Shown here piece after piece: positions 7,332 to 55,900 of a stretch of DNA of 64,000 nucleotides. Made by a program: the position numbers and the translations under genes. The stretch covers positions 75,335 to 139,334 of the forward strand of contig CAZLNP010000001.1 of assembly GCA_964561085.1 (NCBI GenBank), given 5' to 3'. This DNA is from an uncultured Candidatus Saccharibacteria bacterium (GTDB taxonomy: Bacteria > Patescibacteriota > Doudnabacteria > UBA920). Position 1 is the first letter of the stretch. Every line of letters starts with the position of its first letter. Below the pieces are notes generated by a model. That model saw only the letters and a program-made list of their open reading frames with translations. It searched no databases and was not told the origin of the DNA.

Positions 7332-8573
7332 TTATACCATCTTCTCTGCGATGCGCTCTAACGCCACAATGTATGCTGCTGTTCTCATTGTAGTATTATG
7401 CTTTTCTTGAGCAGCGCGGACTGCGGCAAAGGCTGCGACCATGTGTTCATCAAGTTTCTTGAGAACATCTTCCTTAGTCCATGTTTCGTTATTCTGGTTC
7501 TGATACCACTCGAAGTAACTTACACATACTCCTCCGCTGTTTGCGAGGATATCTGGCACTACAGTCACACCGTTTTGCGCAAAGATGGCATCTGCTTCTG
7601 GAGTAGTTGGACCATTAGCCATTTCTAGAATAAATTTTGCTTTGACTTTTGCAGCGTTGTCGCCAGTTAAAACGTTTTCAAGTGCTGCTGGCACTAGAAC
7701 ATCGACATCAAGTTCAAGCAATTCTTCATTAGTAATTTCAATGGTACCCTCTAGCCCGCGCAAAGCCTTATTCGCCGCTTTATGCGCTTCTGCCGCAGCT
7801 AAATCTATTCCTTCAGCGTTAAAAATCCCGCCCTTGCTGTCTGACAAAGCAACCACTTTAAAACCATGCTCTTTTACGTACTCTGCTAAGTAAGTCGCTA
7901 CGTTACCGAAACCTTGAATTGCAATAGTCTTTCGGCCTTCTGTTGCAGAAGCGTCTGGCACAAGTCCAGCTGCCAAAGCTTCGCGAAGTACATAGCCACC
8001 ACCAAAACCAGTTGCTTCGGTGCGACCCTGGCTGCCACCATTCTCTACTGACTTACCAGTAATTACACCAGGAGCTTGCGTGCCGGTTTGTTTTTCAAAT
8101 TCATCACGCATCCACGCCATGATCTGTCCGTTAGTATTTACATCAGGCGCAGGCACATCTACTAAGGGTCCAAAGTTGCGGAACATTTGCTTCATGTAAC
8201 CGCGAGATAAACGCTCAAGTTCCCCTTCGCTCAACTCTTTCGGATTCACAATTATTCCACCCTTACCTCCCCCAAAAGGAACGTTAACTACGGCGTTTTT
8301 GAAAGTCATCCAAAAACTTAACGCGCGAACTTCATCTAAGTTTACATCTTGATGATATCTAATTCCGCCTTTGTATGGACCGCGTGCGTTGTTGTGCTGT
8401 GATCGAAACCCAGAAAAAATCTTTTGAGTTCCGTCGTCCATTTGTACTGGAATTGAAACTTCGATGTAACGATCTGGATTCTTTAATTGGTCTACGATTT
8501 TGGCGTCTGCGTTGCTAACTTGTGCCGCAGCATCTAGTTGGGCTTTTGCTGATTCGAAAGGATTGTTTGTCAT
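7332..8573 (-). CDS. gdhA: Glutamate dehydrogenase (NAD(P)+)
   Basis: KGGIRYH...VNVPFGGGKGG...GFGNVA motifs diagnostic for Glu/Leu/Phe/Val dehydrogenase family, 413 aa. Confidence 0.95.
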   Translation of the reverse strand: MTNNPFESAKAQLDAAAQVSNADAKIVDQLKNPDRYIEVSIPVQMDDGTQKIFSGFRSQHNNARGPYKGGIRYHQDVNLDEVRALSFWMTFKNAVVNVPFGGGKGGIIVNPKELSEGELERLSRGYMKQMFRNFGPLVDVPAPDVNTNGQIMAWMRDEFEKQTGTQAPGVITGKSVENGGSQGRTEATGFGGGYVLREALAAGLVPDASATEGRKTIAIQGFGNVATYLAEYVKEHGFKVVALSDSKGGIFNAEGIDLAAAEAHKAANKALRGLEGTIEITNEELLELDVDVLVPAALENVLTGDNAAKVKAKFILEMANGPTTPEADAIFAQNGVTVVPDILANSGGVCVSYFEWYQNQNNETWTKEDVLKKLDEHMVAAFAAVRAAQEKHNTTMRTAAYIVALERIAEKMV

Positions 8574-10065: not shown

Positions 10066-13000
10066 TTAGAACCCCAGCACTCCAGCAGCACGGGTCACAA
10101 GAACTTGGGTCTGTTGAAGAAGTTTGTCTGCAGTATTAGCTGCTACTGCTGTAATTGGGTTGTATCCCCAAGAAGATAGGACTTCCATGGAAGGAATACC
10201 AGCTAGAGCGTTGTCTTTAATGACTTGAAGAGTACCACTGTTGTTAATTAGAGTTCCTGATCTGTGGGTAGAGTTAGGATCAGAGATATTGTCTGTTGAA
10301 GTCATGAAAGAGACATCTCCATACAAGGCATTAGCAAAGGAGAAGCCTTGAGCTTTGAACACCTTCTCAGAAACAAATCCTGCTTTCATTCCACCAGTGA
10401 TTAGGTAACAAGTGCCTTTGTCTGTACCACGATCTGAGCAAGTGATTGAGCCATCTCTTGGAGGAATGAATGATCCTACCGGAAGAGTTAGATCAGAGCT
10501 GCGAGCGGGAACTGCATTGCTCCAAGTGTTAAAGCCATATGAAAGGTATGCACCTGCTGAAGTGTAAGGCCTGCGTTTACCATCTGAAGTAAGAGTGTAG
10601 ATGGTTCCAGTCGAGTCTACGATGTTAGTACCTACTGGATGGCGAGTGACAGAGCCGGAGGTTGAGCCAGATGCAGAAGCTGTGCCAAACAGTGCGAACA
10701 TTGAGAAACCGCCTGTTTCGCAAGTCACAGTATTTGCATTTGTATCTACTGTGCAAGGAGCTAGCGAAGACCAAGTTCCTGAGCTATATCGCCAAACCAC
10801 AAGAGATGATTCACTGATACCATCTATCTCATCATCTTCATAAGAGAAAGTTAAAGTAATAGGATCATTAAAAGAAGTTACGGATGTCCCAATTCCTGTT
10901 AAGGCTTTCAAGTCGTATGTGTGGCCATTTACAGGGTTTAACCCTGTAGGCATTCCAGAAGCGATTAATGCATCTGCAGTATTTATTTGCTTAATCTGGA
11001 ATACAGACTCTGCCCCAACAGCTCCAGCAGGGATATCTAATTCAATTCCAGAATCCCCATCTGTTAATTCAACCGTGCCTCCAGTAGCATTAGAAACATT
11101 ATCACCTATTTCACTTTCTACTTCTGCAGAACCAGTACAACCGTCAGTTGTAAATGTTGCACTAGAACTTGAAGTAGAAACAGATGAAGCGTCTACCGAT
11201 ACCACACTGTAGTGGTATGTAGTACAAGCAGCAAGGGAAGAGATTGTCTTTGAGTGTGAAAGTACTCGTGGAGAAGTATCCGTTACTGCGGAGGTCTCTG
11301 TGTGAGTAGAAGTAAGTCCGTATGTTACACCAGTAGAAGCAAGAGAGCCTGTTGTCCAAGTGATAACCGCACTAGTGGTCGCAGGATTAACACTAATAGC
11401 GGAAATTACTGGGCCAGTTGTATCGATTACCAAAGCCTTGTTGGCAGCTAAGTTAGTAGTCGGAACGAAGTTTACCATGGCATGAGCATCAAGATCAGCG
11501 ATGGTTCCAGAAATAGTTTTAACGGTTAAGTCATCGGTCGAATCACCAGCTTGAACTGTGTAATTACAACTTCCACTGGTCGCGCTAGTGACTGTAAAAG
11601 TACAGGTCCTGTCTGTCGCACCAGTTTCCAATGTCACTGTGACGTTGCCAGTTGAAGTAACAGCCTTCGAGAAGGTGACATCAATGTCTATTACTTCACC
11701 AACGCTGTATGTACCATTAGCTTTGTCAGAAGAAACATTAGTAATAGTTGGAGCGGAAGAATCTAGGGTTACAGGGTGATCAAAGTGAACTGCCCAGTTG
11801 TACAAAGTGTTGCTGTACAAAGATGGGTACGGGTCTGTATCACGCAAGTTCCCAGCTGCGCTGCCAGCATTTTGTGCACCAGTGTTTGTTCCAGGCACAC
11901 CTGTATAAGCGTATCTTAAGCGTTGGTTATTGCCTGTTGGAGTACCGCTTAGAGTAACTCTAACTGTATCGGTGTCAACTAACTCAACTGAGCTAATTGT
12001 TGCCGATGAAGTTGAGTCGTAATATTCAAATCCATAGTTTGTGCGGGCACTAACTAGAGTTGTATCAAAAGCTAGTTGCCCTGCAGGGACATGGAAGTCT
12101 GCCAAAATTACGTTCCCTGTACGAGTAACAGTGTCTGGGCTCAATGGGCGCCAAGTCTCATGATCTATAGCAACTTTCTTAATTACTTTCGCATGATACT
12201 CCCCTAACCAACGGGAACTTGCTGCAGTTAAGTGATGTCGATCTGAGTAGCTAAAGAAGTATTTTGGAGCAACTAGTACGATCTCATCTGGATTATCTTC
12301 CGCTGCATACAATTGATAGATTGGGATTTCCGAAGTAGCATCGTTAGCGTAAGAAGACATGAAAGAACTCATCTGGTCGATGAACATGTAAACCTCATTA
12401 CTCTGTCCAGTAATTGCTTTTACATCAGTATCGTAATCGTTCTGCCATTCTTCTAAGTAACCCTGATATGTTGCTCCACTTACATTATTGAAGTTATCAG
12501 TTTCACCATGAATATTAGTTACGCCCATTACACGAGACACTCGGCCAAGAGACAAAGCAGCGCTTTTTGCATTCGTAACTTGGTTCATCGCATTAGTATA
12601 TGGCCCTGTCCCCTTTTTCAGCTGGGAATATGTATAACCACTAACTCCATGGAGCGACATAACTGTATCTAAATCATTGCCGGTATCGTTGAAAGTCAAA
12701 GAGTTTGCAATCGCACTACTCATGGTTTCAACACTGCTTTCTATCAAAGCTGTGAAGCTACCGCCAGCACCCATTCCACCAGAACCACCGGTTAACATTT
12801 TGTTAGAGTAAGGTTGTGTAGTCGAAAGGGCTGGGCTTGCAGCAACACCAACAGACAAACTTTGACCTGTAGACAGAATTTGGTTTAAATAATTGATTGT
12901 AGCAACTTGGCTAGTTGCAGAACTAAGAGTTGCGGATCCAGTTGTCGGTGCAGTTGCACTACCTGGCGTTACTTCAAACTTCAGGTACATGCCAATATCG

Positions 13001-15348
13001 TCTTCATCTACTATATACGTAGTACTAGTAGCGCCAGAAATAGCAGAATAGCTGCCACCAGCGCTTGTAGCAGTTAGCCATCTGAAAGTAGAACCTGATT
13101 CCGAGTTGCCGTTCACGTCTACAAAGGTGTACGTTCCTGTAAGTTGCTCCCCAACTGCTGCATTCCCTGAAATAGCTACACCTGTCGCAGTTGGCGCGGT
13201 TGGAGTTGCAGAAACTGGACGAGCTGTAGCTGTAGATGATGGATCACTTGTACCATTGCTATTAATTCCAGATACGCGGAAGTTATAATTCAAACCGTTA
13301 GTTAATCCTGTAACCGTAGCTCCTGTGGAAGTAGAAGTGCCATCAGAAAAAGTTAACCAGGTCCCAGAAGTACTGAGCTTGTATTCAACTAAGTAATCAG
13401 TAATTGCAGCGCCGTTGTCTGCTCCAGCAGTCCAAGTCAACGCTACCTGTCCGTCACCAGGTGTTGCACCTAAACCAGATGGAGCAGCTGGGCCAGTTGC
13501 GGGTTCTATAATTTGTACATTATCTAAGTCGCTAGTACCAGTACTACTCATTGCACCCAGCCAGAACCCTTCGTCAGTAAATGTGCCAGATGTAATAGTT
13601 GCGCTTGGTGTTCCAGAACCATTTACAAACACGCTCGCACCTCCACCTTGGAGCGCCGTTAAGGTTAAGGTGAATGGAACTCCATTTGTACAAGATGTGA
13701 ATCCGCTCAAAGTTTGAGGTGATGCAGATGGACCGGATCCAGCAACGTTTGACCCACCAGTCCAGTAATACAATTCCCAGTTCGTTGCATTAGCTAAAAG
13801 AATATAAGATGATGTTCCTACTCCAGTGAAAACTAAATCACCATAGCCAATTGCTACTGGGCCCACACCCGAACCACAAGATGACCTAGTAACAGTAACT
13901 GTAATACTTACATCGCCGTTAGTTCTATCATATGTTTGTACTGTACTCAGTCCAGCGCCACCCCATGCACCAGTACCGGTTATATTTAGATCTCCATTTT
14001 GTTGAACGTTTCCAACAGTCCCTCCCGTACCACCTGGATCAAGCTCAGTCCATTTGTCAGTATCAATAGTGGTGCCAGTAAAATCATCTGACATAGCAAA
14101 GGTATTTGGAATACCGTTAGCTGTACTGGAAACAGGGCCAGTTCCTACAGAGTTAGTAGCAGAAACGCGGAAGTTATATGTAGAACCGTTTACTAAGCCA
14201 GTAACTGTTGCCCCAGTTGAGCCTGATGTGCCGTCGGAAAAAGTAGTCCAAGTAGTGGGCTCAGTGGAAAGTTTATACTCTACTATATAGTCAGTAATAG
14301 CCGCGCCGCCGTTGGTAAGAGGTGCGGACCAAGTCAAAGTTGATTGTCCGCTCGTTCCGCTAGATGCAGACAAGCCTTGCGGTGCAGATGGGACACTTAA
14401 CGCGGGAGTTGCGGTCGCTGTACTGGAAGGTACGCCGGTGCCCACCGAGTTAGTCGCAGAGACGCGGAAATTATAGCTCAACCCATTTGTTAAACCGGTT
14501 ACTGTAGTAGCCGCTGTAGTTGATGTACCGTCTGAAAAAGTAGTCCAAGTAGTTGGTTCGCTAGCCAATTTATATTCGACTAAGTAATCAGTAATAGCCG
14601 CCCCACCATTGCTAACAGGAGCTGTCCATGTTAATCCCATTGCAGTGCTGGCAGGTGTTGTTGTAAGTCCAGTTGGAGCGTCAGGGGCCGTCGCAGCACT
14701 TGCGCTAGCAATCACAACGTTATCAATTAACGTAGCTGTGCCGGAATGCCCCGAAAGGAAAAAACCTTTGTTGGTAAAAGTACCGCCGGTCAATGTCGCT
14801 GCCGCGGTGCCACTCCCGTTAATGTATAGAGCAGCGCCACTAGTGGAATCAATAGCGATGCGGGCACTAAAAGCCACGCCGTTGGTACAGCTAAAAGCTG
14901 TGGTAATATTTTCAGCATTACCATTAGCAAGCTGTCGGGAGAAATAAACTGTATTTGATACAACGTACAGAGTATAAGACTGTCCGCCGCCGGTCAACAC
15001 CCCAGGATCTCCATATCCAATACCAAAAATACTACTACCACTAGCGCAAGTCACATCAGCTGTCATCTCTAATCCCCCAACAGACCTATCATATGTATCG
15101 TCAGTAACCAAATAGTTGTTACCCCAAGAAGCAGAACCTGTCATGCTCAAAGACCCATTCTGTTGAATGTTCCCAGAAGTTCCCCCTACGCCACCAGCAT
15201 CTGTCTCATTCCATTTTACTGTATTAATAGTGGTTCCAGTAAAATCATCTGATAAAAGAGTCGATGCCTGGGAAAGATTAAACGTACTAGTAATGATTCC
15301 TGTCACTGCAAGAACTGCTATGAGCGTATATATGGACTTTTTGAACAT
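10066..15348 (-). CDS. Giant secreted surface protein (1760 aa): signal peptide, tandem LamG/ConA-like + fibronectin type III modules, SASA/SGNH-like esterase-like domain, Ig-like and FN3 domains
   Basis: N-terminal MFKKSIYTLIAVLAVTG signal/anchor. Repeated DDFTGTTI(N/D)T.KW modules, each followed by FN3-like PSAP..LTWTAP..GGAAITDY.VEYK...Y.FRVSA.N units. Central region has GQSLSVG, reminiscent of the sialate-O-acetylesterase GQSN motif. Near-identical ~200-bp DNA tandem repeats (approx 14150-14350 vs 14445-14640). Confidence 0.8.
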   Translation of the reverse strand: MFKKSIYTLIAVLAVTGIITSTFNLSQASTLLSDDFTGTTINTVKWNETDAGGVGGTSGNIQQNGSLSMTGSASWGNNYLVTDDTYDRSVGGLEMTADVTCASGSSIFGIGYGDPGVLTGGGQSYTLYVVSNTVYFSRQLANGNAENITTAFSCTNGVAFSARIAIDSTSGAALYINGSGTAAATLTGGTFTNKGFFLSGHSGTATLIDNVVIASASAATAPDAPTGLTTTPASTAMGLTWTAPVSNGGAAITDYLVEYKLASEPTTWTTFSDGTSTTAATTVTGLTNGLSYNFRVSATNSVGTGVPSSTATATPALSVPSAPQGLSASSGTSGQSTLTWSAPLTNGGAAITDYIVEYKLSTEPTTWTTFSDGTSGSTGATVTGLVNGSTYNFRVSATNSVGTGPVSSTANGIPNTFAMSDDFTGTTIDTDKWTELDPGGTGGTVGNVQQNGDLNITGTGAWGGAGLSTVQTYDRTNGDVSITVTVTRSSCGSGVGPVAIGYGDLVFTGVGTSSYILLANATNWELYYWTGGSNVAGSGPSASPQTLSGFTSCTNGVPFTLTLTALQGGGASVFVNGSGTPSATITSGTFTDEGFWLGAMSSTGTSDLDNVQIIEPATGPAAPSGLGATPGDGQVALTWTAGADNGAAITDYLVEYKLSTSGTWLTFSDGTSTSTGATVTGLTNGLNYNFRVSGINSNGTSDPSSTATARPVSATPTAPTATGVAISGNAAVGEQLTGTYTFVDVNGNSESGSTFRWLTATSAGGSYSAISGATSTTYIVDEDDIGMYLKFEVTPGSATAPTTGSATLSSATSQVATINYLNQILSTGQSLSVGVAASPALSTTQPYSNKMLTGGSGGMGAGGSFTALIESSVETMSSAIANSLTFNDTGNDLDTVMSLHGVSGYTYSQLKKGTGPYTNAMNQVTNAKSAALSLGRVSRVMGVTNIHGETDNFNNVSGATYQGYLEEWQNDYDTDVKAITGQSNEVYMFIDQMSSFMSSYANDATSEIPIYQLYAAEDNPDEIVLVAPKYFFSYSDRHHLTAASSRWLGEYHAKVIKKVAIDHETWRPLSPDTVTRTGNVILADFHVPAGQLAFDTTLVSARTNYGFEYYDSTSSATISSVELVDTDTVRVTLSGTPTGNNQRLRYAYTGVPGTNTGAQNAGSAAGNLRDTDPYPSLYSNTLYNWAVHFDHPVTLDSSAPTITNVSSDKANGTYSVGEVIDIDVTFSKAVTSTGNVTVTLETGATDRTCTFTVTSATSGSCNYTVQAGDSTDDLTVKTISGTIADLDAHAMVNFVPTTNLAANKALVIDTTGPVISAISVNPATTSAVITWTTGSLASTGVTYGLTSTHTETSAVTDTSPRVLSHSKTISSLAACTTYHYSVVSVDASSVSTSSSSATFTTDGCTGSAEVESEIGDNVSNATGGTVELTDGDSGIELDIPAGAVGAESVFQIKQINTADALIASGMPTGLNPVNGHTYDLKALTGIGTSVTSFNDPITLTFSYEDDEIDGISESSLVVWRYSSGTWSSLAPCTVDTNANTVTCETGGFSMFALFGTASASGSTSGSVTRHPVGTNIVDSTGTIYTLTSDGKRRPYTSAGAYLSYGFNTWSNAVPARSSDLTLPVGSFIPPRDGSITCSDRGTDKGTCYLITGGMKAGFVSEKVFKAQGFSFANALYGDVSFMTSTDNISDPNSTHRSGTLINNSGTLQVIKDNALAGIPSMEVLSSWGYNPITAVAANTADKLLQQTQVLVTRAAGVLGF

Positions 15349-15917: not shown

Positions 15918-15992
15918 GGCGCTATCGTCTAACGGTTAGGACAGACGGTTTTCATCCGTCAAATCGGAGTTCGATTCTCCGTAGCGCTACCA
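15918..15992 (+). tRNA. tRNA-Glu (anticodon TTC), CCA encoded
   Basis: 7-bp acceptor GGCGCTA/TAGCGCT (G1-U72), D-arm GTCT AACGGTTAGG AC, anticodon stem GACGG/CCGTC with loop TTTTCAT, T-arm CGGAG TTCGATT CTCCG, discriminator A then CCA. Confidence 0.85.
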
Positions 15993-17452
15993 CCTAACAT
16001 TTTATCCCTTTTGGAGATAGGCAAACATTCTTTTTTCCAATTGGTTATTACATTTTTATCACTTAGAGAAAAGTTTTCCACTAAACTTTTCACAAGACGG
16101 CGTCGGGATTCTTCCGACGCTGTTTTGTATGCAATGGTTGGGCTTTTAAGCAGTTTTCCAAGGTTTTCCATTTTCAGCATCGATTCAGCATTTTCAGACT
16201 GTACGCCATTTAATTGTTCAGTATATTCAATTTTTTTGTTTAACAATTTTGACTTCATGGATTGATAATCTTCGCTACTGATACTTTTGTCCAAAAATCG
16301 ATCCATTATATCGTCAAGCTGTTTCTCTACTTTATGAATTTCAAATATCCATTTAGCAGTAAGCTCCCCCTGTTGGCTTTTCAAGTCTTCCCTTAACTGT
16401 CCGATTGCTTTCAAAAACATTACTACTTCTTCATCCGAAAATTCAATACCCTTTAGTTCTTCAAAAAACTGTTCATCTACAAGTTCTTCTAACAAATTAT
16501 ATTTATGTTCTGCGCTGCGGCAGTTGTAGTACTTATAATAAACATTTCTATGTACTTTAGTTGAAGAAATACATCTTAATGGTCTATCGCAGGTAGGACA
16601 ATTAAGCATTCCTTGAAATACATACAACCGTTTTCTTTTATGCTTAAAGCTCTTCTTGTCTAACACTTCCTGAACTTTATCAAATAAAGATTTAGTAATG
16701 ATCGGTTGATGAATACCTTTGAAATCTCCTTTATTAGTCCACCGTACGATTCCGTAGTAAAATGGGTTTCTAAACATTTTATAAAGTGTTTTGTGTTTTA
16801 CCAAACCACCGTCATTATTCCTTAACCCCATTTCTTTTAACTTATCCTGTAAAGGTATAATCCCATACAAACCAGTAGCAAACATTTCGAATGCTTGTTT
16901 TACAAGTCTACTTTGAACAGGGTCAGGTTCTTTGAAACCTTTTTTAGAATCTAAATAACCGATTGGAGCTCTTGATGGAAAAAGTCCTTGTTCTAACATT
17001 CTATCAAATGCTGTATTTACTTTAACCCGCAATCTTTGGCTATAGACTGTTGCCTGCCCCCATAAATCATAAATTCTTGAAAGGTCATCGTCTGATTGAG
17101 TTGTGAGATTTTCAGCAGCAAAGTGAAAGTGATAGCCTTGTTCAATAAGTTTGTAAAAATTTCCAATATCTTGGTAATTCCTTGACGATCTGTCCACGGT
17201 AGCAAAGCAAATTCCAGCTAACTTTTCTTTCTTTAATCTTTGTATTAACATGCCAAACAACTTTCTCCCAGGACGAAAGGAAGATTCTACCCCCTCAAAG
17301 AAGTCAACTATTTCTAACCCTCTCTGTTTTGCATATAGTTCTATTTGTTTCTTTTGAATTTCTGGACTCCAGTTTGTTGCTTGGTCTTTTGAACTGACCC
17401 GTACATAAGCTAAGAATTTATTATTAGATAATTTTTTCATGTTGTCCTTCAT
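15959..17452 (-). CDS. Large serine recombinase (resolvase catalytic domain + recombinase domain + zinc ribbon + coiled coil)
   Basis: AYVRVSSKDQ catalytic serine motif near N-terminus, CPTCDRPLRC...C zinc ribbon, 497 aa; C-terminal codons overlap the tRNA-Glu 3' half. Confidence 0.9.
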   Translation of the reverse strand: MKDNMKKLSNNKFLAYVRVSSKDQATNWSPEIQKKQIELYAKQRGLEIVDFFEGVESSFRPGRKLFGMLIQRLKKEKLAGICFATVDRSSRNYQDIGNFYKLIEQGYHFHFAAENLTTQSDDDLSRIYDLWGQATVYSQRLRVKVNTAFDRMLEQGLFPSRAPIGYLDSKKGFKEPDPVQSRLVKQAFEMFATGLYGIIPLQDKLKEMGLRNNDGGLVKHKTLYKMFRNPFYYGIVRWTNKGDFKGIHQPIITKSLFDKVQEVLDKKSFKHKRKRLYVFQGMLNCPTCDRPLRCISSTKVHRNVYYKYYNCRSAEHKYNLLEELVDEQFFEELKGIEFSDEEVVMFLKAIGQLREDLKSQQGELTAKWIFEIHKVEKQLDDIMDRFLDKSISSEDYQSMKSKLLNKKIEYTEQLNGVQSENAESMLKMENLGKLLKSPTIAYKTASEESRRRLVKSLVENFSLSDKNVITNWKKECLPISKRDKMLGGSATENRTPI

Positions 17453-18176
17453 ATATGTTTCCTTTATATGATATTTTATTTTTATAAATATCGTTAGTTA
17501 ATATTTTTTTAATTGTTGACGGCCACCACCTGTTACCTCCACGCTTTGTTGGTATGCTTCGCAAATTTAGGTATGCAGCAATTTTAGTAAGATTCATTCT
17601 CTTATAGCGTTTTAAGTGAAAGATTTTTCTTACAATATCTGCCTCTGCTTGATTTGTTATCAACTGTCCGTCTTTGCAGTCGTATCCGTAAATTTCTCCT
17701 CCATGCCACCTCCCCTTAGCTGCAGCCGAAGCGCGTCCGTTGGTCAGTCGCATTGTAATCATGGCTCTTTCGAATTCACTAAAAGCACCTATAATTTGCC
17801 TAAACAGTTTACGAGTTGCATCATTACTACCTAAGTCTGGTTCAGTTAGTGAGATTAGCTGTTTATTTAGTTTTATAAACTCTCTTATTAGTCCTTCCTG
17901 GATATAGAGGTCACGGGCTAATCTCGTCAGTGACAAAATTACAACTGCTTTTACTTCGCTATTAACTTCTAAATACTGCATCATTTGTGCCAGCGCTGGC
18001 CTATGTTCCAAACCGCCACTTACACCATCGTCTTTAAACCATTCAACTATTTCTATACCGTTCTTTTTTGCATAATTTGATATTGATTCAACTTGTAATT
18101 CAATGTTGTCATTTTCCGCTTGTAGTGCAGTTGATACTCTGCAATATGCTATCGCTTGCATTTTCGTTCCTTCCAT
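17424..18176 (-). CDS. Serine recombinase, short form (resolvase domain + partial recombinase domain, no zinc ribbon)
   Basis: AIAYCRVSTALQ catalytic motif; 250 aa; 3' end overlaps the start of the 497-aa recombinase by 29 nt. Confidence 0.8.
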   Translation of the reverse strand: MEGTKMQAIAYCRVSTALQAENDNIELQVESISNYAKKNGIEIVEWFKDDGVSGGLEHRPALAQMMQYLEVNSEVKAVVILSLTRLARDLYIQEGLIREFIKLNKQLISLTEPDLGSNDATRKLFRQIIGAFSEFERAMITMRLTNGRASAAAKGRWHGGEIYGYDCKDGQLITNQAEADIVRKIFHLKRYKRMNLTKIAAYLNLRSIPTKRGGNRWWPSTIKKILTNDIYKNKISYKGNIYEGQHEKII

Positions 18177-18472
18177 ATCTGATTACTAACTTTTGCGAAT
18201 TCTGACCGAGCGAACTTTATCCCCTTTAACAACGAAAACGCTTTCGCGTAATCTGCGTCTAGTATTGCCCTAATTCTGTCCTGTTCCATCTGCCTTAATT
18301 TTTGTGAAGTACCTTTTAGCCACTCGAGCCGTTCTTCACAATTAGAGAATTTCATGTTACTCCAAATATAAAACCACCAGAGAATGAACTGCCAATTGTT
18401 ACGACACAACAACAGTTTCCCTGGTGGTTTAATTAAACTATACCAAATAAAAATTTGGCGTTCAATATCCAT
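18149..18472 (-). CDS. hypothetical small protein (likely starts at internal MKFSNCEER...)
   Basis: ORF from track upstream of the recombinase pair; N-terminal part of the track ORF is tryptophan-rich and implausible. Confidence 0.3.
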   Translation of the reverse strand: MDIERQIFIWYSLIKPPGKLLLCRNNWQFILWWFYIWSNMKFSNCEERLEWLKGTSQKLRQMEQDRIRAILDADYAKAFSLLKGIKFARSEFAKVSNQIWKERKCKR

Positions 18473-18609
18473 TGTTGTGTCGTATATAAATAGTAATCAC
18501 TATAGATGGCAAAGTACAATCTAGTCCGCAACTAGCCACAAAAGTATTCCCCTGTATACTCTTTATTAAATCCTCCTAAAATGGTGTCTATGGTGTATAT
18601 GCTGTCAGG

Positions 18610-20190
18610 CTAAAATGGTATGTCAGATTCATTTAGTGTATCCAAGGCCGCTTCGTCTGAATCTTCCATGACACCAGAAACAGCATTGACACCACTCTCG
18701 TAAATCTTCGTAAATGTAATCAGTCGTGCGCCGTCCTTATCGCGAGAAACTTTGATTCCGAGCGCCATCAGGTTTGTTGCGACAACTTGCAGTCTACGCC
18801 ATAGCCAATTCGGTGTTTTTGGAAATTCTCTCTGTCTTGTGTCTTGTTTTAGCTTTATTGCCAGTTCTTGAAGCACTAATAGCAAGTCAGTTGGAGTAGC
18901 TTGATAGTGCGTTTTGTTTTCCATGAATGCAATAACAACTTGCGCCACAGGAGAGTCATCAATCGCTTCAGCATTTTGTCTGATTAGGTTTTGAGTTAAC
19001 GCATCTATAAATTCTTCTGCCGTGTGTCCAATCGCAATACTGATAGCACAGCCCCACCGCACAAAATCTGCCATACGGAAGTTGCTTATTTGTTCTGGCA
19101 GTTCCATTCCCGGGTATACTTTAATGGATTTTTGTACTGCTCCAATTATTGCGCCTAAGAGCTGCGGTCGTGCTTGTTCAAACTCTGCCATTAACACACC
19201 TTCTTCTTTATAGTTTTGAGGTCTTTCTAGTTCAATAATTAGTGAACGTTCCAACAAATCAGGTTTACTAACCACAAGATTAATTCCGTTCATGGCAACG
19301 ACACGGCGGAAGCTGTAAATAATATCATCGTCATCTGAATAGAGTTCTCGCTTTGACATACCTTCGCCAGTCACGGTTCTGCATAATAGGTCTGAAAATT
19401 CAGGTTTTATAGGTGATAGATTATCAAGCGGTAAGAAATAATGATGGCTGGCTAACTGCACATACTCTCTGCTGTCGCCATGTGCGGTTAAAGTTTCCAT
19501 TATTGATGGGTCAATTAGCCCACGGAGCAGTTTGAACAAAGTAGTTTTTCTTGACCCTTGCGGTCCGTGAACAACTAATATCGGGTGCGGGAAGTTAGGC
19601 AACACAGACGCTACGAGCCATACAAGCAGTAATAATTTTTGACGTGGTTCTTTCGGAGTAGGAATGAAGTCAAATACTTTTTCTAACTCTGCTCCTGGTA
19701 TAGGTGCAACCTGCAGGCGCTGATGTCCGAATCTGTAAAACAGAATTGGTGCAGGGTCTAGTATTTTCCACTCATCTTTATTTATCAGTACCGCACGACC
19801 ATCACCTAAATCGTAAATTATACCGTTATCAGTTTCAGCAATTCTTACATGTAGCTTTATTTCTTCGCTGTCATGCGTTGCGTGTCCTTCTAGCGTTCTA
19901 ACTGCTGTTTCTATAGTGCCAGACGACACGGCCTTGCCTAATTCATCCCAACCGAGATGCGACAACCATGACTTGAATCCACGCGACCTCAGCTTTAGAG
20001 TCTTATGTCCATTCTCCTCTACAGCTATAAAGCCGTTATCAAACTGGTCATGAAATAGTTTAACGTTTCTGTTCAGTACCAGTTCAACAAGCTGTTCGGT
20101 AAGATTCTTTTCACTATCTGATTCAACTATAGATTCAGCTACAGAATCTTGGGTTTCTTTTTCTATAATTTCGTTTTCTTTGTCTGTCAT
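18610..20190 (-). CDS. Phage/plasmid primase-associated helicase (D5/P4-type P-loop NTPase)
   Basis: Walker A VHGPQGSRKTT about 190 aa from N-terminus, acidic C-terminus; gene order immediately after a primase zinc-finger protein. Confidence 0.6.
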   Translation of the reverse strand: MTDKENEIIEKETQDSVAESIVESDSEKNLTEQLVELVLNRNVKLFHDQFDNGFIAVEENGHKTLKLRSRGFKSWLSHLGWDELGKAVSSGTIETAVRTLEGHATHDSEEIKLHVRIAETDNGIIYDLGDGRAVLINKDEWKILDPAPILFYRFGHQRLQVAPIPGAELEKVFDFIPTPKEPRQKLLLLVWLVASVLPNFPHPILVVHGPQGSRKTTLFKLLRGLIDPSIMETLTAHGDSREYVQLASHHYFLPLDNLSPIKPEFSDLLCRTVTGEGMSKRELYSDDDDIIYSFRRVVAMNGINLVVSKPDLLERSLIIELERPQNYKEEGVLMAEFEQARPQLLGAIIGAVQKSIKVYPGMELPEQISNFRMADFVRWGCAISIAIGHTAEEFIDALTQNLIRQNAEAIDDSPVAQVVIAFMENKTHYQATPTDLLLVLQELAIKLKQDTRQREFPKTPNWLWRRLQVVATNLMALGIKVSRDKDGARLITFTKIYESGVNAVSGVMEDSDEAALDTLNESDIPF

Positions 20191-20193
20191 ATT

Positions 20194-20817
20194 TTATAGT
20201 CCTAGTAAGTACTTGACGGCTTCGGGGAAAGAATAGCCGTGAAGTAACATTATGAATTTAATTGAGTTGCCCCCTTCTTGGCAGCCGAAACACCAACAAG
20301 AATTTGTTTGTGAGTAAACTGTGAATGACGGGCGTTTGTCTTCGTGGAATGGGCATAGCCCTGTGAGATTGTTTCCACTACGCCTTAGTCTGCCGTCGTA
20401 CAAATCAGCTATTGGAATTTGAGTGGCCATTTCTATTTGCTCATCTGTCAATCGTCCTTTAGGCTTCTTGCCACTGGCGACATAAACTTGCCGTCTCAGT
20501 CTTGCTATATGCTTAATTACTTCAAGTAGTTGTAGCCCGTCAGTGTGCTTAACCAATTCTCTGCAAAACCAGTATTCAAAGTCAGTTTTTGTACTGTCAT
20601 ATAATCGTTCCAGTTTCCGCAATATTGATTTCTTGACGGCTTTCTTTACGATTTGCCATTCCTTAATCTTGCTTGGCAGTACAGACTTGATTTCAGGGAA
20701 TATCGATAACAACTCAGCATCTGTATATTTGCGCTTTGAATCCCTATGTTCAGATTCCAGTTCTTCATACATGAGCCACTGCTCATAATCTTTATCGACA
20801 TGACTAGCTTGTGTCAT
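20194..20817 (-). CDS. DnaG-type primase zinc-finger (CHC2) domain protein
   Basis: C-terminal CPFHEDKRPSFTVY...CWCFGCQEGGNSIKF matches the zf-CHC2 consensus; 3-nt gap to the helicase gene. Confidence 0.6.
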   Translation of the reverse strand: MTQASHVDKDYEQWLMYEELESEHRDSKRKYTDAELLSIFPEIKSVLPSKIKEWQIVKKAVKKSILRKLERLYDSTKTDFEYWFCRELVKHTDGLQLLEVIKHIARLRRQVYVASGKKPKGRLTDEQIEMATQIPIADLYDGRLRRSGNNLTGLCPFHEDKRPSFTVYSQTNSCWCFGCQEGGNSIKFIMLLHGYSFPEAVKYLLGL

Positions 20818-21168
20818 CAGTATCTCCTTTCGACTGTTTACAATCGTTATCGAAAATATGAATGACAGCTTCTAAGTAATCTCCGTACTTGTCTAGCACT
20901 TCTTCTATATTCATTTGTTTTCTTTCTGCATAAATGCAAAAAGAGCTTTCTCAAGCAGACAAACAAAACACCCGTTCGGTGATCGTTTATCAACATAAGA
21001 AAGCCCTTCTAGTTTTTACGTATATTCTAGAAGCAGGTGTCGCACCCCCTATACTCAACGGAGCGGTAGGATAGATATACCTCGCTTATCAATGCAGTAC
21101 TGTTTAAAAAGAACTCTTTACTTAATTACTAGGTAATTATAGCAGATTCAAACAACCATGTCAAAAAA

Positions 21169-21501: not shown

Positions 21502-21793
21502 ATATATATTGTAGTATTAGTTAACTTCTCTAGACGTGATTTCTTACATTCGGTTAGTACCGAGTGTCCAAGACCCTAAAGCAAGTGACTATAATATAAC
21601 AAAATAACCCCTCTCAGAATAGGCATATAAATACCTATAACCAATACAAAAAGTGTTCTCTGAGGCCATTCTAGGACTTCATGGAATGCTTCAAAGTGCC
21701 TTGTTTATAGTACTTTTAGCTGTAATGGTATATAATTAACCTACAATTCTGCCTAAACCTTCAAGTAATTGAAGGCATGGCGCAATACTAAAC

Positions 21794-21922
21794 CCACTAC
21801 TACATGAAGGCGGCTATCCGTCTTGCTTACCATGTAGTAGTGGTTATCCTTCCGAAAGGTTGGATAAGGCAAGCGGGTAGCCCCTTTTGTTTTTTAAAAT
21901 AATTAAATCCACTACTACAATG
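21794..21922 (+). repeat. iteron-like element: three copies of CCACTACTACA(A)TG (two forming a 13-bp inverted repeat) plus TTATCC/GGATAA hairpin and T-tract
   Basis: Copies at 21794-21806, 21831-21843 (inverted) and 21909-21922 (overlapping the start codon of the downstream ORF). Confidence 0.5.
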
Positions 21923-23067: not shown

Positions 23068-23676
23068 TTATTCTATGCCATGTTTATTCTTCCAATCCTT
23101 GAAAAGCTGCTCTGTTCGCTGATGTTGCTCATCTGTTAGTTCCCCTACAATTCCAGACTGTTCTTCTAGGTCAATATTTTTAGAAAGTGTTATATAATCT
23201 TTAACCATTTTTGCCTTAGTTTCTAAATCAAACAGACTATCACCGTTATAAGATAATTCTTTAATTCTGCCGTGGCTTAAACTATCTCTTATGCTTTTTA
23301 TTTTCCATAAGAATTTAGTATGTGCGGTTTTGCCCCTGACTTTCTCTACAAAGAAGATTCTATCGCCGAACGAAATTTCATTCGGTTTATACGCAGGGTG
23401 AGTAGGATCAACTTTCTCCATTTTCAAACCTATATTAGTTCTGATAAAATTGTCCAAATCTTCTGTTGAATTACCCAACATTTCATTAACTACATTAGCC
23501 GCTTGGGTTAAGGTGGAATTTAAATCCTGTTCAACGGTATGACAAAACCAAAAAGCAAATTCAACAGTTAATCTTTCTTCTTTTGAAATCTTAAGCATCG
23601 TATCAGGAATTAAGTTAGCAAAATCCTGACTGCTGTATTGCTTCAATAAATTTTCTAAATCAATTTCTTCAGTCAT
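23068..23676 (-). CDS. HEPN-like protein (Rx4H motif)
   Basis: KIKSIRDSLSHGRIKE contains R-x4-H; 202 aa; start overlaps the upstream DUF4238-like gene by 8 nt. Confidence 0.4.
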   Translation of the reverse strand: MTEEIDLENLLKQYSSQDFANLIPDTMLKISKEERLTVEFAFWFCHTVEQDLNSTLTQAANVVNEMLGNSTEDLDNFIRTNIGLKMEKVDPTHPAYKPNEISFGDRIFFVEKVRGKTAHTKFLWKIKSIRDSLSHGRIKELSYNGDSLFDLETKAKMVKDYITLSKNIDLEEQSGIVGELTDEQHQRTEQLFKDWKNKHGIE

Positions 23677-24547
23677 GCTTAATTTCCTTTGCTAATTTTT
23701 CTAACACTTCTTTATCATTATGGAATAGGTATCTATCACTACGTGATGCTAGTGCTAAATTGATTTCATCTACACTCTTTCCACTAATGGTCGCTATTAA
23801 ATTTTCTTCGTGATCATCTAGCATTAACAAGCATACCTTTGAAGTTATAGGAAATACCTTTATTACTCCTCTAACCAGAAACCCCATAGCGGGCGGCTTC
23901 TTCCCTTCAATAAAAGTCATTACAAACGGCGAACTTGTAGTGATAAAAGAATAATTTTCTGGAGCAAAGCAGTATCGCCATTCTAGGTGCAAAAAATTAG
24001 CTGCGAATTGCACACCTGAATTAACAACCATTTCAAGGTGCTGGTTCTTAAACTTTGTATCCGAATCAAGCAGCTCAGTTAAATTGTCATGTAGTTCCCT
24101 CGCAGAGATACCTGGTGTATCCGATGGCAAGAAATCTGGAGTCTTAACTTCATGTTTTTCCTCCGGAATATCCCATTCTTTCATAATTTCCATGAGTTGA
24201 TTCATTGAATCTCTATTCTGATTCTCATAACTAGGTACTCGCACAAATTGATAAGCAATAAATAGCGCTAATTTATCTTTTTCCAATTGTGTCGGGCGTT
24301 CTTTGTTCTCAATTTTCTCTATTATTGGTTTGATATCGCTTTCCATCTGAGCAAAGTATCTTTCAATGTCATTATTTTTCTCACCTTCATAAACCAAAGA
24401 GTAGTAATTACTAATAACCGCCACGTTTTCAAGTGACGGTGAATAGTATTTATTTTCTAACTTATCGTAGACCCAAACCTTTTCGTTATCGGCAAAACCT
24501 CTTAAATAGGTTTGAGGTACATAGTGGTGTCGTTTAGGTTCGCTCAT
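23669..24547 (-). CDS. DUF4238-like protein
   Basis: N-terminal RHHYVPQTYLRGF and C-terminal FITTSSPFVM match what I recall of the DUF4238 family profile; 292 aa, the typical size. Confidence 0.45.
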   Translation of the reverse strand: MSEPKRHHYVPQTYLRGFADNEKVWVYDKLENKYYSPSLENVAVISNYYSLVYEGEKNNDIERYFAQMESDIKPIIEKIENKERPTQLEKDKLALFIAYQFVRVPSYENQNRDSMNQLMEIMKEWDIPEEKHEVKTPDFLPSDTPGISARELHDNLTELLDSDTKFKNQHLEMVVNSGVQFAANFLHLEWRYCFAPENYSFITTSSPFVMTFIEGKKPPAMGFLVRGVIKVFPITSKVCLLMLDDHEENLIATISGKSVDEINLALASRSDRYLFHNDKEVLEKLAKEIKHD

Positions 24548-32596: not shown

Positions 32597-32714
32597 TCAT
32601 ATTTGCATCGATTTTGCCCTAAGACTCGAATGCATCAAAACGACTGTGTGAAATCTCCTAGAAATCCTTTATAGCTCCCCTAGTTGATCAGTTCTAGACG
32701 CGGTATCACTACCA

Positions 32715-39799: not shown

Positions 39800-40828
39800 A
39801 TGAACATAACTCATTTTGAAGTGTCCGACGAAGACAAGAAGATTCTGCACTCTTTGTCATCAAACGTTGGGGGTCTCCAGCAAGATAAAATTGACTACAT
39901 CGAAGAAAACTTAAGCTCATCAACAATAAGTCGCGCTACCAAAGCAGAGGCAGTGACGGTCTTTGTTAATTCCATGGTTGATAAGTCCATAATTGACTCG
40001 CTGCCAAATTTAAAGCTCATCATCACTCGGTCTACAGGTTTCGATCACATCGATGTAGCCCACGCCCAATCCAAAGGAATTCTAGTTTGCAATATCCCCG
40101 CCTATGGCTCACGTACTGTAGCTGAGTTTACTTTTGCTTTAATCCTAACTCTGTCTCGCAAAGTATTTAGCGCGATTGAGCAGATTAAATTTAATAAAAG
40201 TTGGGATGTTTCGAATTTTGAAGGGTTTAATTTGCAGGGTAAAACCTTAGGGGTGGTTGGCACTGGGCGCATTGGTTTGAACGTCATACAAATAGCTAAA
40301 GGGTTCGATATGAAAATAATGGCCCACGATGCTTTTCCAAATGAAGATAAAGCTAAAGCTTATGGCTTTGAATACTCCAAATCACTAGAAGAATTGCTCG
40401 CGGCTTCTGACATTGTCACCTTACATGTGCCTGCGAACCCTGATACTCATCATCTAATTAATTTAGATAACATCTCGAAAGTGAAAAAGGGTTGCATGTT
40501 AATAAATACAGCGCGCGGTGATGTAATTGACCCAGCCGCACTAATCAAAGGTTTAAACGAAGGAATTTTGGGAGGTGCCGGACTGGACGTACTTGAAGGA
40601 GAACATGAACTAAAGGAAGAGGCTGAGTTAATGTCTTCGAATCATCTAAGTTTCGAGAAACTTAAAGTGCTCTTGGAAGATCACGAATTAATGGATCATC
40701 CAAAGGTTATTATTACCCCACACGTTGCGTTCAATACAAGAGAAGCTCGCACCGAAATTATGACCACCACTTTGACTAATCTATCTGGGTTCATGGCTAA
40801 CGAACCCCAAAATGTTATTACTATATAA
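39800..40828 (+). CDS. D-isomer-specific 2-hydroxyacid dehydrogenase (hydroxypyruvate/glycerate dehydrogenase-like)
   Basis: GVVGTGRIG NAD motif, ...INTARG.. and catalytic His region HVAFNT. Confidence 0.85.
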   Translation: MNITHFEVSDEDKKILHSLSSNVGGLQQDKIDYIEENLSSSTISRATKAEAVTVFVNSMVDKSIIDSLPNLKLIITRSTGFDHIDVAHAQSKGILVCNIPAYGSRTVAEFTFALILTLSRKVFSAIEQIKFNKSWDVSNFEGFNLQGKTLGVVGTGRIGLNVIQIAKGFDMKIMAHDAFPNEDKAKAYGFEYSKSLEELLAASDIVTLHVPANPDTHHLINLDNISKVKKGCMLINTARGDVIDPAALIKGLNEGILGGAGLDVLEGEHELKEEAELMSSNHLSFEKLKVLLEDHELMDHPKVIITPHVAFNTREARTEIMTTTLTNLSGFMANEPQNVITI

Positions 40829-52906: not shown

Positions 52907-55900
52907 TTATGGATTGGTTCCACTGCCTTCACCGCCGCCGTCTCCTGGAGGCGTATCACCTGAAGGTGGTGTATCTCCTGATGGAGTATCGGCAGGTGGG
53001 TCTGATGCAGGAGGTGTCCCACCGTCGCCAGAGCCTTCACCGGAACCGCTGTCACCAGAGCCACTATCTCCAGATCCTGAATCACCGTCATCGGCACCGG
53101 CCACAAAGCCGCTTGGAGTATCTATACTCATAAATGTTGTAGCGTTACGAACTGCTAACGCTGTCCATGACATCTTCACGTCACTAGGAGCTGGCTTGCT
53201 TAACACAATTGTGAAGCCAAACTTGCTCTTGTTTGTTACAACATAAGTGATGCCTTCAGCTAAGAAGGTTTGTGCTGCAGCAATTGAATCGTTCTTAAGA
53301 ACTTCGCGAGCTTCTTCATCTAGTAATTCTTGATCTACGTCTTGCTCAAAGCTAATTGATGCATTAACTATTGGCTGAGCTAGGTATTCACGAGTAAACA
53401 CTACATCTACACTTTGAACACCAGCTTTCACTACGGCGAACCCTGCAGTGTCAGAAGTAAAGTAAGGAGTGCCGAAGAATTCAACGTCGCTGCTGAATGA
53501 TAGCAGGTCACCAATTGCACTGATTGTATCAACTGTTAACCCACCGTTGAACATGGTTGTAGAAGCCACAGATAGTCCTCCGTCAGAAGTAGCTGAGCTC
53601 AAGAAGTCAGCACGCAAAGTTTGCGTTGTCACAGTTGGAGTGATTATTTCACCATTAGCAACTACTACGTCAGTTACAACTTCGGAGAGATTTTCTGAGT
53701 CTAAGCTTGGAAGTTGAGAAATTAAGTATTCTAGAATTTGTGAAGAATTTTGCGCTGAGTTTAACAATCCCTGTTCTGTACCAGTGTAATCAAAGGTTAA
53801 TCCAGCGAGCTGATCTTCAATAGCAAGGCCATTGTAGTTAGATGGTTTGATGAAAGCGTCAATTTTTCCAACGCCACCAGTAAATGTTTCTAGAGCTTGC
53901 CCAATCACAGATCCAGCTTTAGTTGCCTTCATGGCAGCACCTGGTATTGTTGCTGAGTTAACCAAGAAGTCACCTGGCATAATCTCGCCGTTCTCGTTAG
54001 AGACCTTAACCTGCGCTCGGCCAATCAACGCAACTGAATATTTTGTATTACCACTGCCTTCTTCTAGCTCAGAGCCAAGCTCTAATCCTGACTCTTCTAC
54101 TACAACTCCAAGAATTGATTTAGAACCAGACATGTCTGCTCGAGCAATTAGCGCATCTTCAGAATTGTCTATTGCTACCACTTCCCCTGCTTCTAAAGAG
54201 TCATCTGATGATTCATAGTTTTCAGATATACTATTGCCTGAAACCTTTACTGAATCTGCAACAACGTTTTCAGCTGTCACTGTTTCAGATGTGATTGTTT
54301 CGGCTGTCACTTCTTCAGCAACAACACTCTCCGCAATTATACTTTCTACCATGATACTACCTTCGATTTGAGCATCGCCTCTCACTATAATATTGCCAAA
54401 TAGCTCTAGCTCTGCAGAGTCTGCAGCTGTGCCAATTGTAAGCTTGCGAGTATTAGTGTTTACATTAAACAATGTGCTGCCGGTGTTATCTGAAATGTTT
54501 ACCGCAGTATCAGATGCCGCCTGAAGTACAATATCGCTACTAGCACCTGTGCTTGAACCATTCCAAGATAAGTTAACTAATACCAATACTTGGGTTTGAG
54601 AAGTGCCAGGAGTCCAGCTCTCTAGAGCTTTTCCAATAGTTGGTCCGTTAACCGACGCCTTCATAGCTTTACCAGGGTAGGTACCAGAAGATACGATTGC
54701 ATCTCCTGCTGCAATTGGTGCAGAGTCTGGCGCGATGTTTACAGGAACACGTCCAGCCAAAGCAACAGGTACAGTTGGCAAACCGTTAATAGCCGCTTCT
54801 TCCTGAGACAGACGTAAACCAGGTTTTGTAGAGTAGATACCAACTACTGTTCTGTCATAGCCAACAGAAGAGCGAACTACTAAACCAGTTTCATTTGGAT
54901 TCAAGCTAAGTACATCCCCTGCCACAAGGCCTTGTTCACGAGTTGGGTAGTCTTCCGCAATGTCATAAGCACCTGTAGTAGAAACAAGTGAGTGGCTAAA
55001 CAAGAAGCTACCCATGTTGTCGGCATTACTGTCTCCAGTCTGATTGCCAACAAAGCTAATGCTACCATAGTTTCCGCTTCCAGAATCAAATTTAAGCGCG
55101 TATGAATTAGTAAATGTCTTACTCCATGTGTAGACGCTACCGATACCACCTTCAGTGGTTCCTAAATATAGGGTTCCATTAAAAGCAATTATTGCAGAAA
55201 GTGAATCAACATTAGCCTGACTGCCAAATGTGCCTTCAGTAGAGTTTATTATATCCCACTTACGAGTAGTATCATCATACTCATATAAATTAGCCTGATT
55301 AACGTCACTATATGTGCCAGCATACAATCTTCCATTGTACTCTCGTAATACAGGCACGGAATCAGTAAAGTCTGCTTGGGTTTGATCAAGAATGCCTTCA
55401 GTAATCCCTGTCGGGTCAAAACTCAACTCAGGTTCGCCAAATCTTCCCTCAAGGTCACTAGCATTGCTAAATACAAATGAATAAACTTGCCCGGCGTCGG
55501 GTTCAGCAGTACCAAAGTACAAACGGCCATTATGGACTGCTAAGGATGAGATATCATCGATAGCGGTAAGGCCTCCAGCTGAAAATGTTCCGTCTGTTGT
55601 ATGAAGTCTTACGAAATTATTACTATTGCTATTTTCTCCTGTGTAAACACATAATCTAGCTCCATCACTGCCAGTACCTGCAGCAATACCCCAGAACAGA
55701 CGGCCATCGTATACAGCCAATTGACCAGAGTCTTGGTTATTCTGAGCAGTACAATATTGAGATCCACTCCCGCCATAACTAAGGTTAACAAAAGCTCCGC
55801 TTCCTCTATACGAGTACACCTGCGCTGCATCCGCCTCTTGGGTAGCAACTATTAGTACACCTCCATAAACTACCATATCGCTAATGCCATCAATGCCATT

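Follow-up and report, generated by a model that had tools for sequence, protein, structure and literature searches.

The DNA analysed here, a stretch of 64,000 nt from contig CAZLNP010000001.1 of an uncultured Candidatus Saccharibacteria bacterium, is called the window as a whole, and labels such as L001 denote the loci with which it was compared. This account concerns two overlapping serine recombinase genes in the window, one short and one long, which lie next to a tRNA-Glu gene, and the mobile element to which both appear to belong. Both genes are intact, conserved and under constraint, and their pairing is conserved as a module. The features at the tRNA-proximal end of the element are as follows.

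15918..15992, plus strand: tRNA-Glu(UUC), the putative integration target (ARAGORN; Rfam tRNA, 60.6 bits)
15981..15992, no strand assigned: candidate attL core that the element would supply, made up of the last ~12 nt at the 3' end of the tRNA (by analogy with L017 and L019/L020)
15959..17452, minus strand: long large serine recombinase, 497 aa, a putative tRNA-Glu integrase (Pfam, AlphaFold2 model)
17424..18176, minus strand: short serine recombinase, 250 aa (Pfam, family length and invariant residues, AlphaFold2, Foldseek, dN/dS)
18149..18355, minus strand: conserved 68-aa open reading frame (ORF) with a stop that overlaps the short recombinase gene at its start (alignment of the window, L001, L007 and L058)
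18400..18484, minus strand: conserved leader or operator with 16-bp inverted arms (four-locus alignment, compensatory pairs)

A preliminary description of this DNA, made from the sequence, had reported two serine recombinase ORFs with their catalytic motifs, which read AIAYCRVSTALQ in the short protein and AYVRVSSKDQ in the long one, and had noted the overlaps between the genes and with the tRNA; all of this is as we find it. The short and long ORFs, both on the minus strand, share 29 nt (17424-17452), and the first ATG that gives this overlap is backed by an M-x-D-N N-terminus kept in homologues. At its other end the long ORF overlaps the convergent tRNA-Glu gene by 34 nt. Three genes are thus chained by overlaps, namely the 68-aa ORF, the short recombinase gene and the long recombinase gene.

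The short protein, which would have 245 rather than 250 residues if the ATG at 18161 were the start, matches two Pfam families, Resolvase (1-145/145, E 2.3e-33) and Recombinase (2-87/102, E 3.6e-11). It consists of a catalytic domain, an alpha-E helix and a recombinase domain of the type found in large serine recombinases (LSRs). The zinc ribbon and the coiled coil are missing, as the preliminary description had also stated, and Pfam, the AlphaFold2 (AF2) model and the boundary at which the family ends agree on this point. The AF2 model shows two confident domains, with a predicted local distance difference test score (pLDDT) of 83.6. Searched with Foldseek, this predicted structure finds the Bxb1, SPbeta and phiC31 integrases as its best matches, and its modelled C-terminal domain superposes on the recombinase domain of a Listeria integrase (4kis_A) at 2.4 A over 112 columns. 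The best PDB matches of the protein are the TP901-1 and SPbeta integrases, and among PHROGs profiles the integrase family phrog_95 (E 2e-66) scores well ahead of the invertase family phrog_125 (E 2e-36). Whereas small serine recombinases have some 180-210 aa and a short C-terminal helix-turn-helix, the short protein has 250 aa and a PF07508 domain; of the four parts of a large serine recombinase it has the catalytic and PF07508 domains but neither the zinc ribbon nor the coiled coil. It conforms to neither of the two canonical types of serine recombinase, large or small.

More than 480 homologues of the short protein were found, and the best 120 are all 200-266 aa long (mostly 240-266), nearly all with the same two Pfam domains and mostly from Patescibacteria-type genomes. 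Its length is fixed across hundreds of homologues and many phyla. All 68 aligned full-length members end at ...H-E-x-I-I, which is the boundary between recombinase domain and zinc ribbon, and the recombinase domain of the short protein is not a broken piece, which refines the earlier description of it as part of such a domain. A scan of viral contigs returned only distant relatives of the short protein, with at most 47% identity.

This regularity bears on a suggestion made at the outset, that the short gene is a truncated or decayed duplicate, in other words a functionless remnant of a second integrase. The missing zinc ribbon and coiled coil would fit such an origin, as would one substitution: the residue that corresponds to D67 in Tn3 resolvase is Thr in the window protein, and among the 68 aligned members it is Asp in 61, Thr in six close relatives and Ser in one. 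However, the relatives that share the Thr are intact as well, and in Tn3 resolvase D67 mutations slow cleavage about 60-fold, the residue not being essential (PMC2794168). The catalytic Ser and Arg are kept in the short protein, and Y11, R13, S15, Q19, D49, S53, R59, R85 and R88 are invariant among the 68 sequences. The short and long proteins of the window are only 32% identical (over 82 aa). Frameshift remnants of the short gene, another sign of decay that had been proposed, were not seen, and there is no room for any. Furthermore, comparison with L056, a 90%-identical relative, gives a ratio of nonsynonymous to synonymous substitution rates (dN/dS) of 0.13 for the short gene and 0.02 for the long one. 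Given the fixed family length, the invariant catalytic residues, the confident fold and this constraint, we give next to no credence to a decaying duplicate. Judged from its sequence and its family, the short gene is instead an intact member of a widespread class of LSR lineage that naturally ends after the recombinase domain.

The long protein has all four parts of a large serine recombinase, that is, the catalytic domain, PF07508, the zinc ribbon and the coiled coil. In Pfam it matches Resolvase and Recombinase, with Zn_ribbon_recom below threshold (21.6 bits against a cut-off of 25.3); its AF2 model (pLDDT 86.9) has zinc-ribbon strands at residues 283-321 and an antiparallel coiled coil at 340-387/393-436, from which we take the protein to be full length. 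Y16, R18, S20, D87, R88 and R91 are invariant in its family, as are C285, C288 and C311 of the zinc ribbon; position 316 is Cys in at least 90% of the family, and inspection of the sequence gives His in the window protein. The last ~10 codons of the long ORF are the reverse complement of the tRNA, and they fall in a disordered tail (residues 487-497, pLDDT below 50). Homologues end in the same manner, their tails (GSATENRTPI and similar) being reverse-complement translations of a T-arm and acceptor stem.

The association of the long gene with such targets is general. Of 13 informative pairs, 11 have a long gene whose 3' end runs into a gene for tRNA-Glu, -Lys, -His or -Arg, for transfer-messenger RNA (tmRNA), or a tRNA-like gene, and the tRNA or tmRNA target tracks the phylogeny of the long protein. 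Relatives with 43-46% identity stand at tRNA-Glu in L060, L141, L142, L155 and L167, with no short gene, and further solo relatives stand at tRNA-Leu, -Ala, -Pro and -Asn. The long protein is thus linked to tRNA and tmRNA targets, and from its sequence it is best read as a tRNA-targeting integrase with its attachment site, attP, inside its own 3' end.

Two observations in compared loci place this site more closely. The L017 element is 7.4 kb long and has at each boundary an 11-bp direct repeat, GGGGTGGCTAG, which copies the 3' end of tRNA-His; the two copies, at 189-204 and 7581-7596, agree at 11/11 positions, or at 14/16 with flanks. In L019 and L020 the recombinase cassettes are 90% identical and the homology ends exactly at the position that matches the boundary of the L017 repeat; L019 lies in a secondary site that is not a tRNA, next to transporter genes. 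The L017 repeat and the L019/L020 breakpoint together indicate that attP lies in the 3' end of the integrase gene and that the last ~12 nt of the tRNA come from the element. By analogy with these loci, the crossover position in the window would likewise lie at the 3' end of the tRNA. The displaced repeat copy in L017 follows a terminator-like hairpin, and among the examples of this element type L017 is the one defined best.

The far end of the window element was sought with 24-mers at up to 3 mismatches, by local alignment, with 12-17-mers and by a scan for inverted arms, and nothing convincing emerged. The best 12-mer (39930-39941, one mismatch) lies inside a conserved 2-hydroxyacid dehydrogenase gene and is taken for a chance match, and a degenerate match of 17/24 near 32691-32714 lacks significance. 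Comparison with L056 yields no boundary, because its sequence and that of the window stay collinear for 9.1 kb, at 90% identity. A G1-U72 wobble in the tRNA-Glu was considered as a mark of hybrid origin and rejected, as it is present in all related tRNA-Glu genes.

A short gene followed by a long one, with an overlap or with a gap of less than 70 nt, was found in L001, L002, L007, L010, L012-L017, L019, L020, L058 and L143, that is, in at least 14 loci besides the window. Seven of the pairs overlap by 4-32 nt (29 nt in the window), and gaps of 20-70 nt also occur. Always upstream lies a replication-type protein of 370-600 aa, which belongs to one of at least four unrelated families. A single frameshifted gene, or a fusion made by programmed frameshifting, was rejected as an explanation of the overlap, because the long ORF begins with its own complete catalytic domain and the overlap lengths vary. 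In L010 (7596-9189) the pair is integrated at tmRNA and the long recombinase is split by an apparent frameshift into ORFs of 425 and 111 aa; this appears to be a decaying copy or an assembly error, unlike the intact genes of the window.

The recurrence of the pair also speaks to the idea that two independent elements, each with one recombinase, are stacked at the same tRNA. Tandem islands often accumulate at tRNA genes, and the low-GC region of the window reaches well beyond the conserved backbone. However, the two genes overlap by 29 nt, their order and spacing recur with many targets and backbones, and no att-like repeat lies between them, and we consider stacking very improbable.

How tightly the two genes are bound to each other can be gauged from their divergence. 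The identity matrix of the short proteins is correlated with that of their long partners (r 0.88, Mantel p 4e-4), and between L019 and L020 the recombinases are 93% and 96% identical as against 42% for the replicase. Between the window and L001, the replicase (88%), the primase (82%) and the short protein (74%) are similar, whereas the long proteins are only 37% identical and the targets differ. The window and L058, for their part, share the same target, with 69% identity in the long and 60% in the short protein, and have unrelated replicases.

These data can be read as the work of a cooperating pair, in which the short protein would either join the long one in mixed oligomers, by way of the catalytic domains, or modulate it, and would be needed for integration, for the switch to excision, or for both, in the manner of CcrA/CcrB or of a directionality factor. 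The adjacency and overlapping frames kept in at least 14 loci favour this, as do the transfer of the cassette between different backbones (L019/L020), the closer kinship of the short protein with large serine recombinases than with resolvases or invertases, and the fact that no recognisable directionality factor is seen in the element. Against it, the long relatives mentioned above occupy the same tRNA-Glu without a short gene, and short relatives occur with no large serine recombinase or beside tyrosine integrases. The genes have also been shuffled, as the comparisons of the window with L001 and with L058 show, the DNA-binding domain of the short protein does not co-vary with the target, and an excision factor co-transcribed with the integrase would defeat directional control. 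We regard a cooperating pair or directionality partner as possible and would not expect it. If the short protein did work with the integrase, as a subunit of mixed oligomers or as the enzyme of excision at the tRNA core, these elements would achieve reversible integration with no conventional directionality factor, and directional control by two recombinases has not been described so far.

The short relatives that lack a long partner are of two kinds. For example, L061, a contig of 10,532 nt from IMG/VR, has a 119-nt terminal repeat that indicates a circular replicon of ~10.4 kb. Its only recombinase is a 47%-identical short serine recombinase of 250 aa, directly after a primase-helicase; its other genes encode a replication initiator, the Toprim-DnaB primase-helicase itself, an HTH_17 protein and HicB. 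Proteins of the same architecture are the sole recombinase on small Bacillaceae plasmids (Priestia, Anoxybacillus), and the solo relatives on circular replicons are accompanied by no tRNA fragment. The second kind comprises distant relatives of 216-252 aa, each separated by 3-32 nt from a downstream tyrosine integrase gene that adjoins a tRNA; the eight loci are L036, L037, L039, L040, L041, L049, L053 (Acidobacteria) and L052 (Syntrophomonadaceae). The layout of short serine recombinase, integrase and tRNA thus recurs whatever the integrase family. A split integrase, made of a solo short protein and a separate protein with the zinc ribbon and coiled coil, was rejected, as the adjacent ~380-aa ORF by the tRNA is a tyrosine integrase in all eight loci.

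A further possibility is that the two proteins divide the work at the tRNA core, with the long one integrating one way and the short one, which has no coiled coil, excising or recombining in both directions. A precedent is the small serine recombinase of phiRSM, which performs both reactions at the 3' end of a tRNA (PMC4471427). The identity core in L017, at 11 bp, is longer than a large serine recombinase needs, and the active site of the short protein appears complete from its sequence. However, the recombinase domain of the short protein is similar across elements at tRNA-Glu, -Lys, -His, -Arg and tmRNA and does not co-vary with these targets, and its solo relatives reside on circular replicons that carry no tRNA fragment. 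We think this division of labour unlikely.

The reading that we prefer, and to which we give about an even chance, is that the short protein is a separate, resolvase-like accessory recombinase that acts on the circular replicating form of the element. The whole region would be a recombination operon (68-aa ORF, short and long genes) at the tRNA-proximal end of an integrated self-replicating element that would also encode a primase zinc-finger protein and a P-loop replicase, in a host genome that resembles those of Patescibacteria. The long protein would recombine the attP in its own 3' end with the last ~12 nt of tRNA-Glu, which would rebuild the tRNA and leave the long ORF reading into it. 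The short protein would act on a site in the circular form, for instance in resolving multimers, and would perhaps regulate its own operon. That it works independently is suggested by the solo short relatives, by the shuffled partners and by a DNA-binding domain that does not track the target, and it is probably not an obligate co-integrase.

Several observations weigh against a separate resolvase-like function. The overlapping stop and start codons (29 nt here) suggest that the short and long proteins are made together, and in L019/L020 both recombinase genes moved as one unit. The pair shared by the window and L058 persists despite an unrelated replicase, and so the short gene is tied no less closely to the integration module than to replication. 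The partner matrices correlate (Mantel p 4e-4). The window protein has Thr at the D67 equivalent, no res-like site or array was identified for it, and the far end of the window element, which bears on its current mobility, was not found. All roles that are heteromeric or concern directionality or excision, taken together, therefore receive from us somewhat less than an even chance; that the short protein works with the integrase specifically as a subunit of mixed oligomers or as an excision-specific enzyme at the tRNA core is doubtful.

The small gene at the head of the operon is of interest in this context. Its 68-aa product (MKFS..EER..WLK...AFSLLKGIKFARSEF) is conserved in the window, L001, L007 and L058 and has no NCBIfam or PHROGs match. 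It is contained in a 107-aa frame (18149-18472) that has a dN/dS of 0.09 against L056 and no Pfam match, although 107 aa is probably not the real extent of the gene. The 68-aa protein is a candidate accessory or directionality factor.

Upstream of it, two 16-bp inverted arms (18484-18469, TACGACACAACAATGG, and 18415-18400, CTGTTGTTGTGTCGTA) stand 53 bp apart and bracket a promoter-like TTGAAC-17-TATAGT (18465-18437). This leader is conserved in four divergent loci, with three compensatory pairs in the arms and four in the whole predicted structure. A role as operator, as leader hairpin or as binding site for a recombinase is conceivable for the arms, and their 53-bp spacing does not fit a dimer site of the res/hix type. 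An invertible promoter between them is unlikely, as the segment is only 53 bp long and has the same orientation in all five loci.

Further upstream, the backbone of the element contains the following features.

18610..20190, minus strand: 526-aa P-loop protein, a probable replicative helicase or initiator (weak profile matches; synteny)
20194..20817, minus strand: 207-aa protein with a DnaG-type CHC2 primase zinc finger (Pfam, TIGR01391, PHROGs)
21136..21164, minus strand: promoter-like site with a perfect sigma-70 consensus, TTGACA-17-TGnTATAAT (consensus match only)
21750..21882, plus strand: LOOT RNA (Rfam RF03000) within the conserved element backbone (50.3 bits against a gathering score of 46.4)

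The 526-aa protein, which has weak matches to the Rad17 P-loop and to phage primase, is 88% identical to its homologue in L001, and its family occurs upstream of the recombinases in L001, L007, L010 and L060. The 207-aa protein matches Pfam Zn_ribbon_DnaG (E 1.9e-22), TIGR01391 and the PHROGs DNA primase profile. The sigma-70 consensus-like site lies upstream of the string of genes that runs from the primase to the recombinases. The LOOT RNA stands between a zinc-ribbon ORF of 110 aa and an ORF of 196 aa, and it is syntenic in L001 (4307-4437, minus strand, 45 bits); this orphan RNA motif may belong to a mobile element.

Some other properties of the window may be recorded here. Between 16000 and 39000 the GC fraction is 0.33-0.41, as against 0.42-0.49 in the flanks, and since this tract far exceeds the conserved backbone of ~7 kb, several islands or cargo may lie within it. 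At 23068-24547 (minus strand), in low-GC DNA outside the backbone, a gene with a weak Apea-like HEPN match (E 1.8e-4) adjoins one for DUF4238 (E 9e-44), and the two may be a defence-type pair carried as cargo. Finally, giant ORFs lie on the minus strand at 10066-15348 (1760 aa) and 52907-63868 (3653 aa); the former, which directly flanks the tRNA-Glu gene, has 'GGAAITDY...TNGLSYNFRVSA' repeat units that look fibronectin-III-like by eye.

Large serine recombinases are a model for one-way DNA rearrangement and a tool for genome engineering. The short protein represents a widespread, natural, 'domain-minimal' class that databases label generically and for which we found no characterisation in the literature, and the clade of its long partner uses tmRNA and no fewer than eight tRNA species as targets, at their 3' ends. 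The operon, fixed in one Patescibacteria-centred clade, offers a natural experiment on the contribution of the zinc ribbon and coiled coil and on whether a task may be shared between two serine recombinases. Should the short protein be only a plasmid-type resolvase, the gain would be a tidy one in the annotation of mobile elements in candidate phyla. Modules with several recombinases, att sites within the genes of integrases and serine recombinases that target tRNAs are all known already, each by itself. Our literature search found no description of serine recombinase pairs in Patescibacteria or of recombinases that lack the zinc ribbon, and a conserved operon in which a relative with neither zinc ribbon nor coiled coil accompanies a tRNA-targeting integrase was likewise not met with in the searchable literature.

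The CcrA/CcrB pair of the staphylococcal cassette chromosome SCCmec is similar in having two adjacent, co-oriented serine recombinase genes on a mobile element at the 3' end of a conserved gene, and CcrB is the best NCBIfam match of the short protein. However, both Ccr proteins are full length (model lengths of 442 and 542 aa), whereas here the zinc ribbon and coiled coil are absent from one partner; their target is rlmH rather than a tRNA; and both partner types studied here also occur alone in relatives. The short protein scores 108 bits with CcrB (cut-off 900) and 52.7 with CcrA (cut-off 700), and the long one 49.2 with CcrA and 42 with CcrB. With scores so far below the cut-offs and one partner that is not a full-length LSR, the earlier proposal of a CcrA/CcrB-like pair does not hold as a matter of family membership.

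Serine integrases of streptococcal integrative and conjugative elements (ICEs) also occur in modules, including triplets, for which successive duplications have been proposed (Ambroset et al. 2016, PMC4701971). They insert in protein-coding genes such as rumA, mutT, traG and hsdM, and single integrases have an attachment site in the 3' end of their gene, so that integration swaps the C-terminus of the protein (PMC4701971). The long recombinase of the window is alike in having a predicted attachment site in its own 3' end. In contrast to the ICEs, the partners here are distant, at 32% identity, two domains are absent from one of them, and tRNA and tmRNA genes serve as targets.

A tRNA 3' end is also used by the phiRSM integrase of Ralstonia filamentous phages, a resolvase/invertase-type enzyme that works alone and in both directions on a 13-bp core at the 3' end of tRNA-Ser (PMC4471427), as compared with the 11-bp core of L017. 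Here, however, the enzyme linked to the tRNA is a full-length LSR and the small partner does not follow the target. Serine recombinases of mycobacterial AICEs (the integrative and conjugative elements of actinomycetes) act at tRNA-Leu, and insertion into a tRNA by a serine recombinase has been called 'rare' (PMC3218068).

For the short protein, a model is offered by plasmid and Tn3-family resolvases (Tn3/gamma-delta, Sin, beta), which likewise are dedicated recombinases beside replication genes. Such resolvases adjoin replication or transposition genes, resolve multimers or cointegrates and repress their own promoter. Unlike them, the short protein has an LSR-type recombinase domain of ~90 aa instead of a helix-turn-helix of ~40 aa, it is nearer to integrases in sequence and in fold, and no res site was found for it. 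The long protein, in turn, resembles the LSRs that work with directionality factors (phiC31 with gp3, Bxb1 with gp47, SPbeta with SprB) in its four-part integrase architecture. Directionality factors bind the coiled-coil/zinc-ribbon region of the integrase and make attL x attR recombination possible; the known ones are usually regulated separately from the integrase and have no defining sequence signature, and we know of none that is itself a serine recombinase. As in those systems, the integrase has neighbours that are candidate cofactors, here the adjacent 68-aa gene and the short recombinase.

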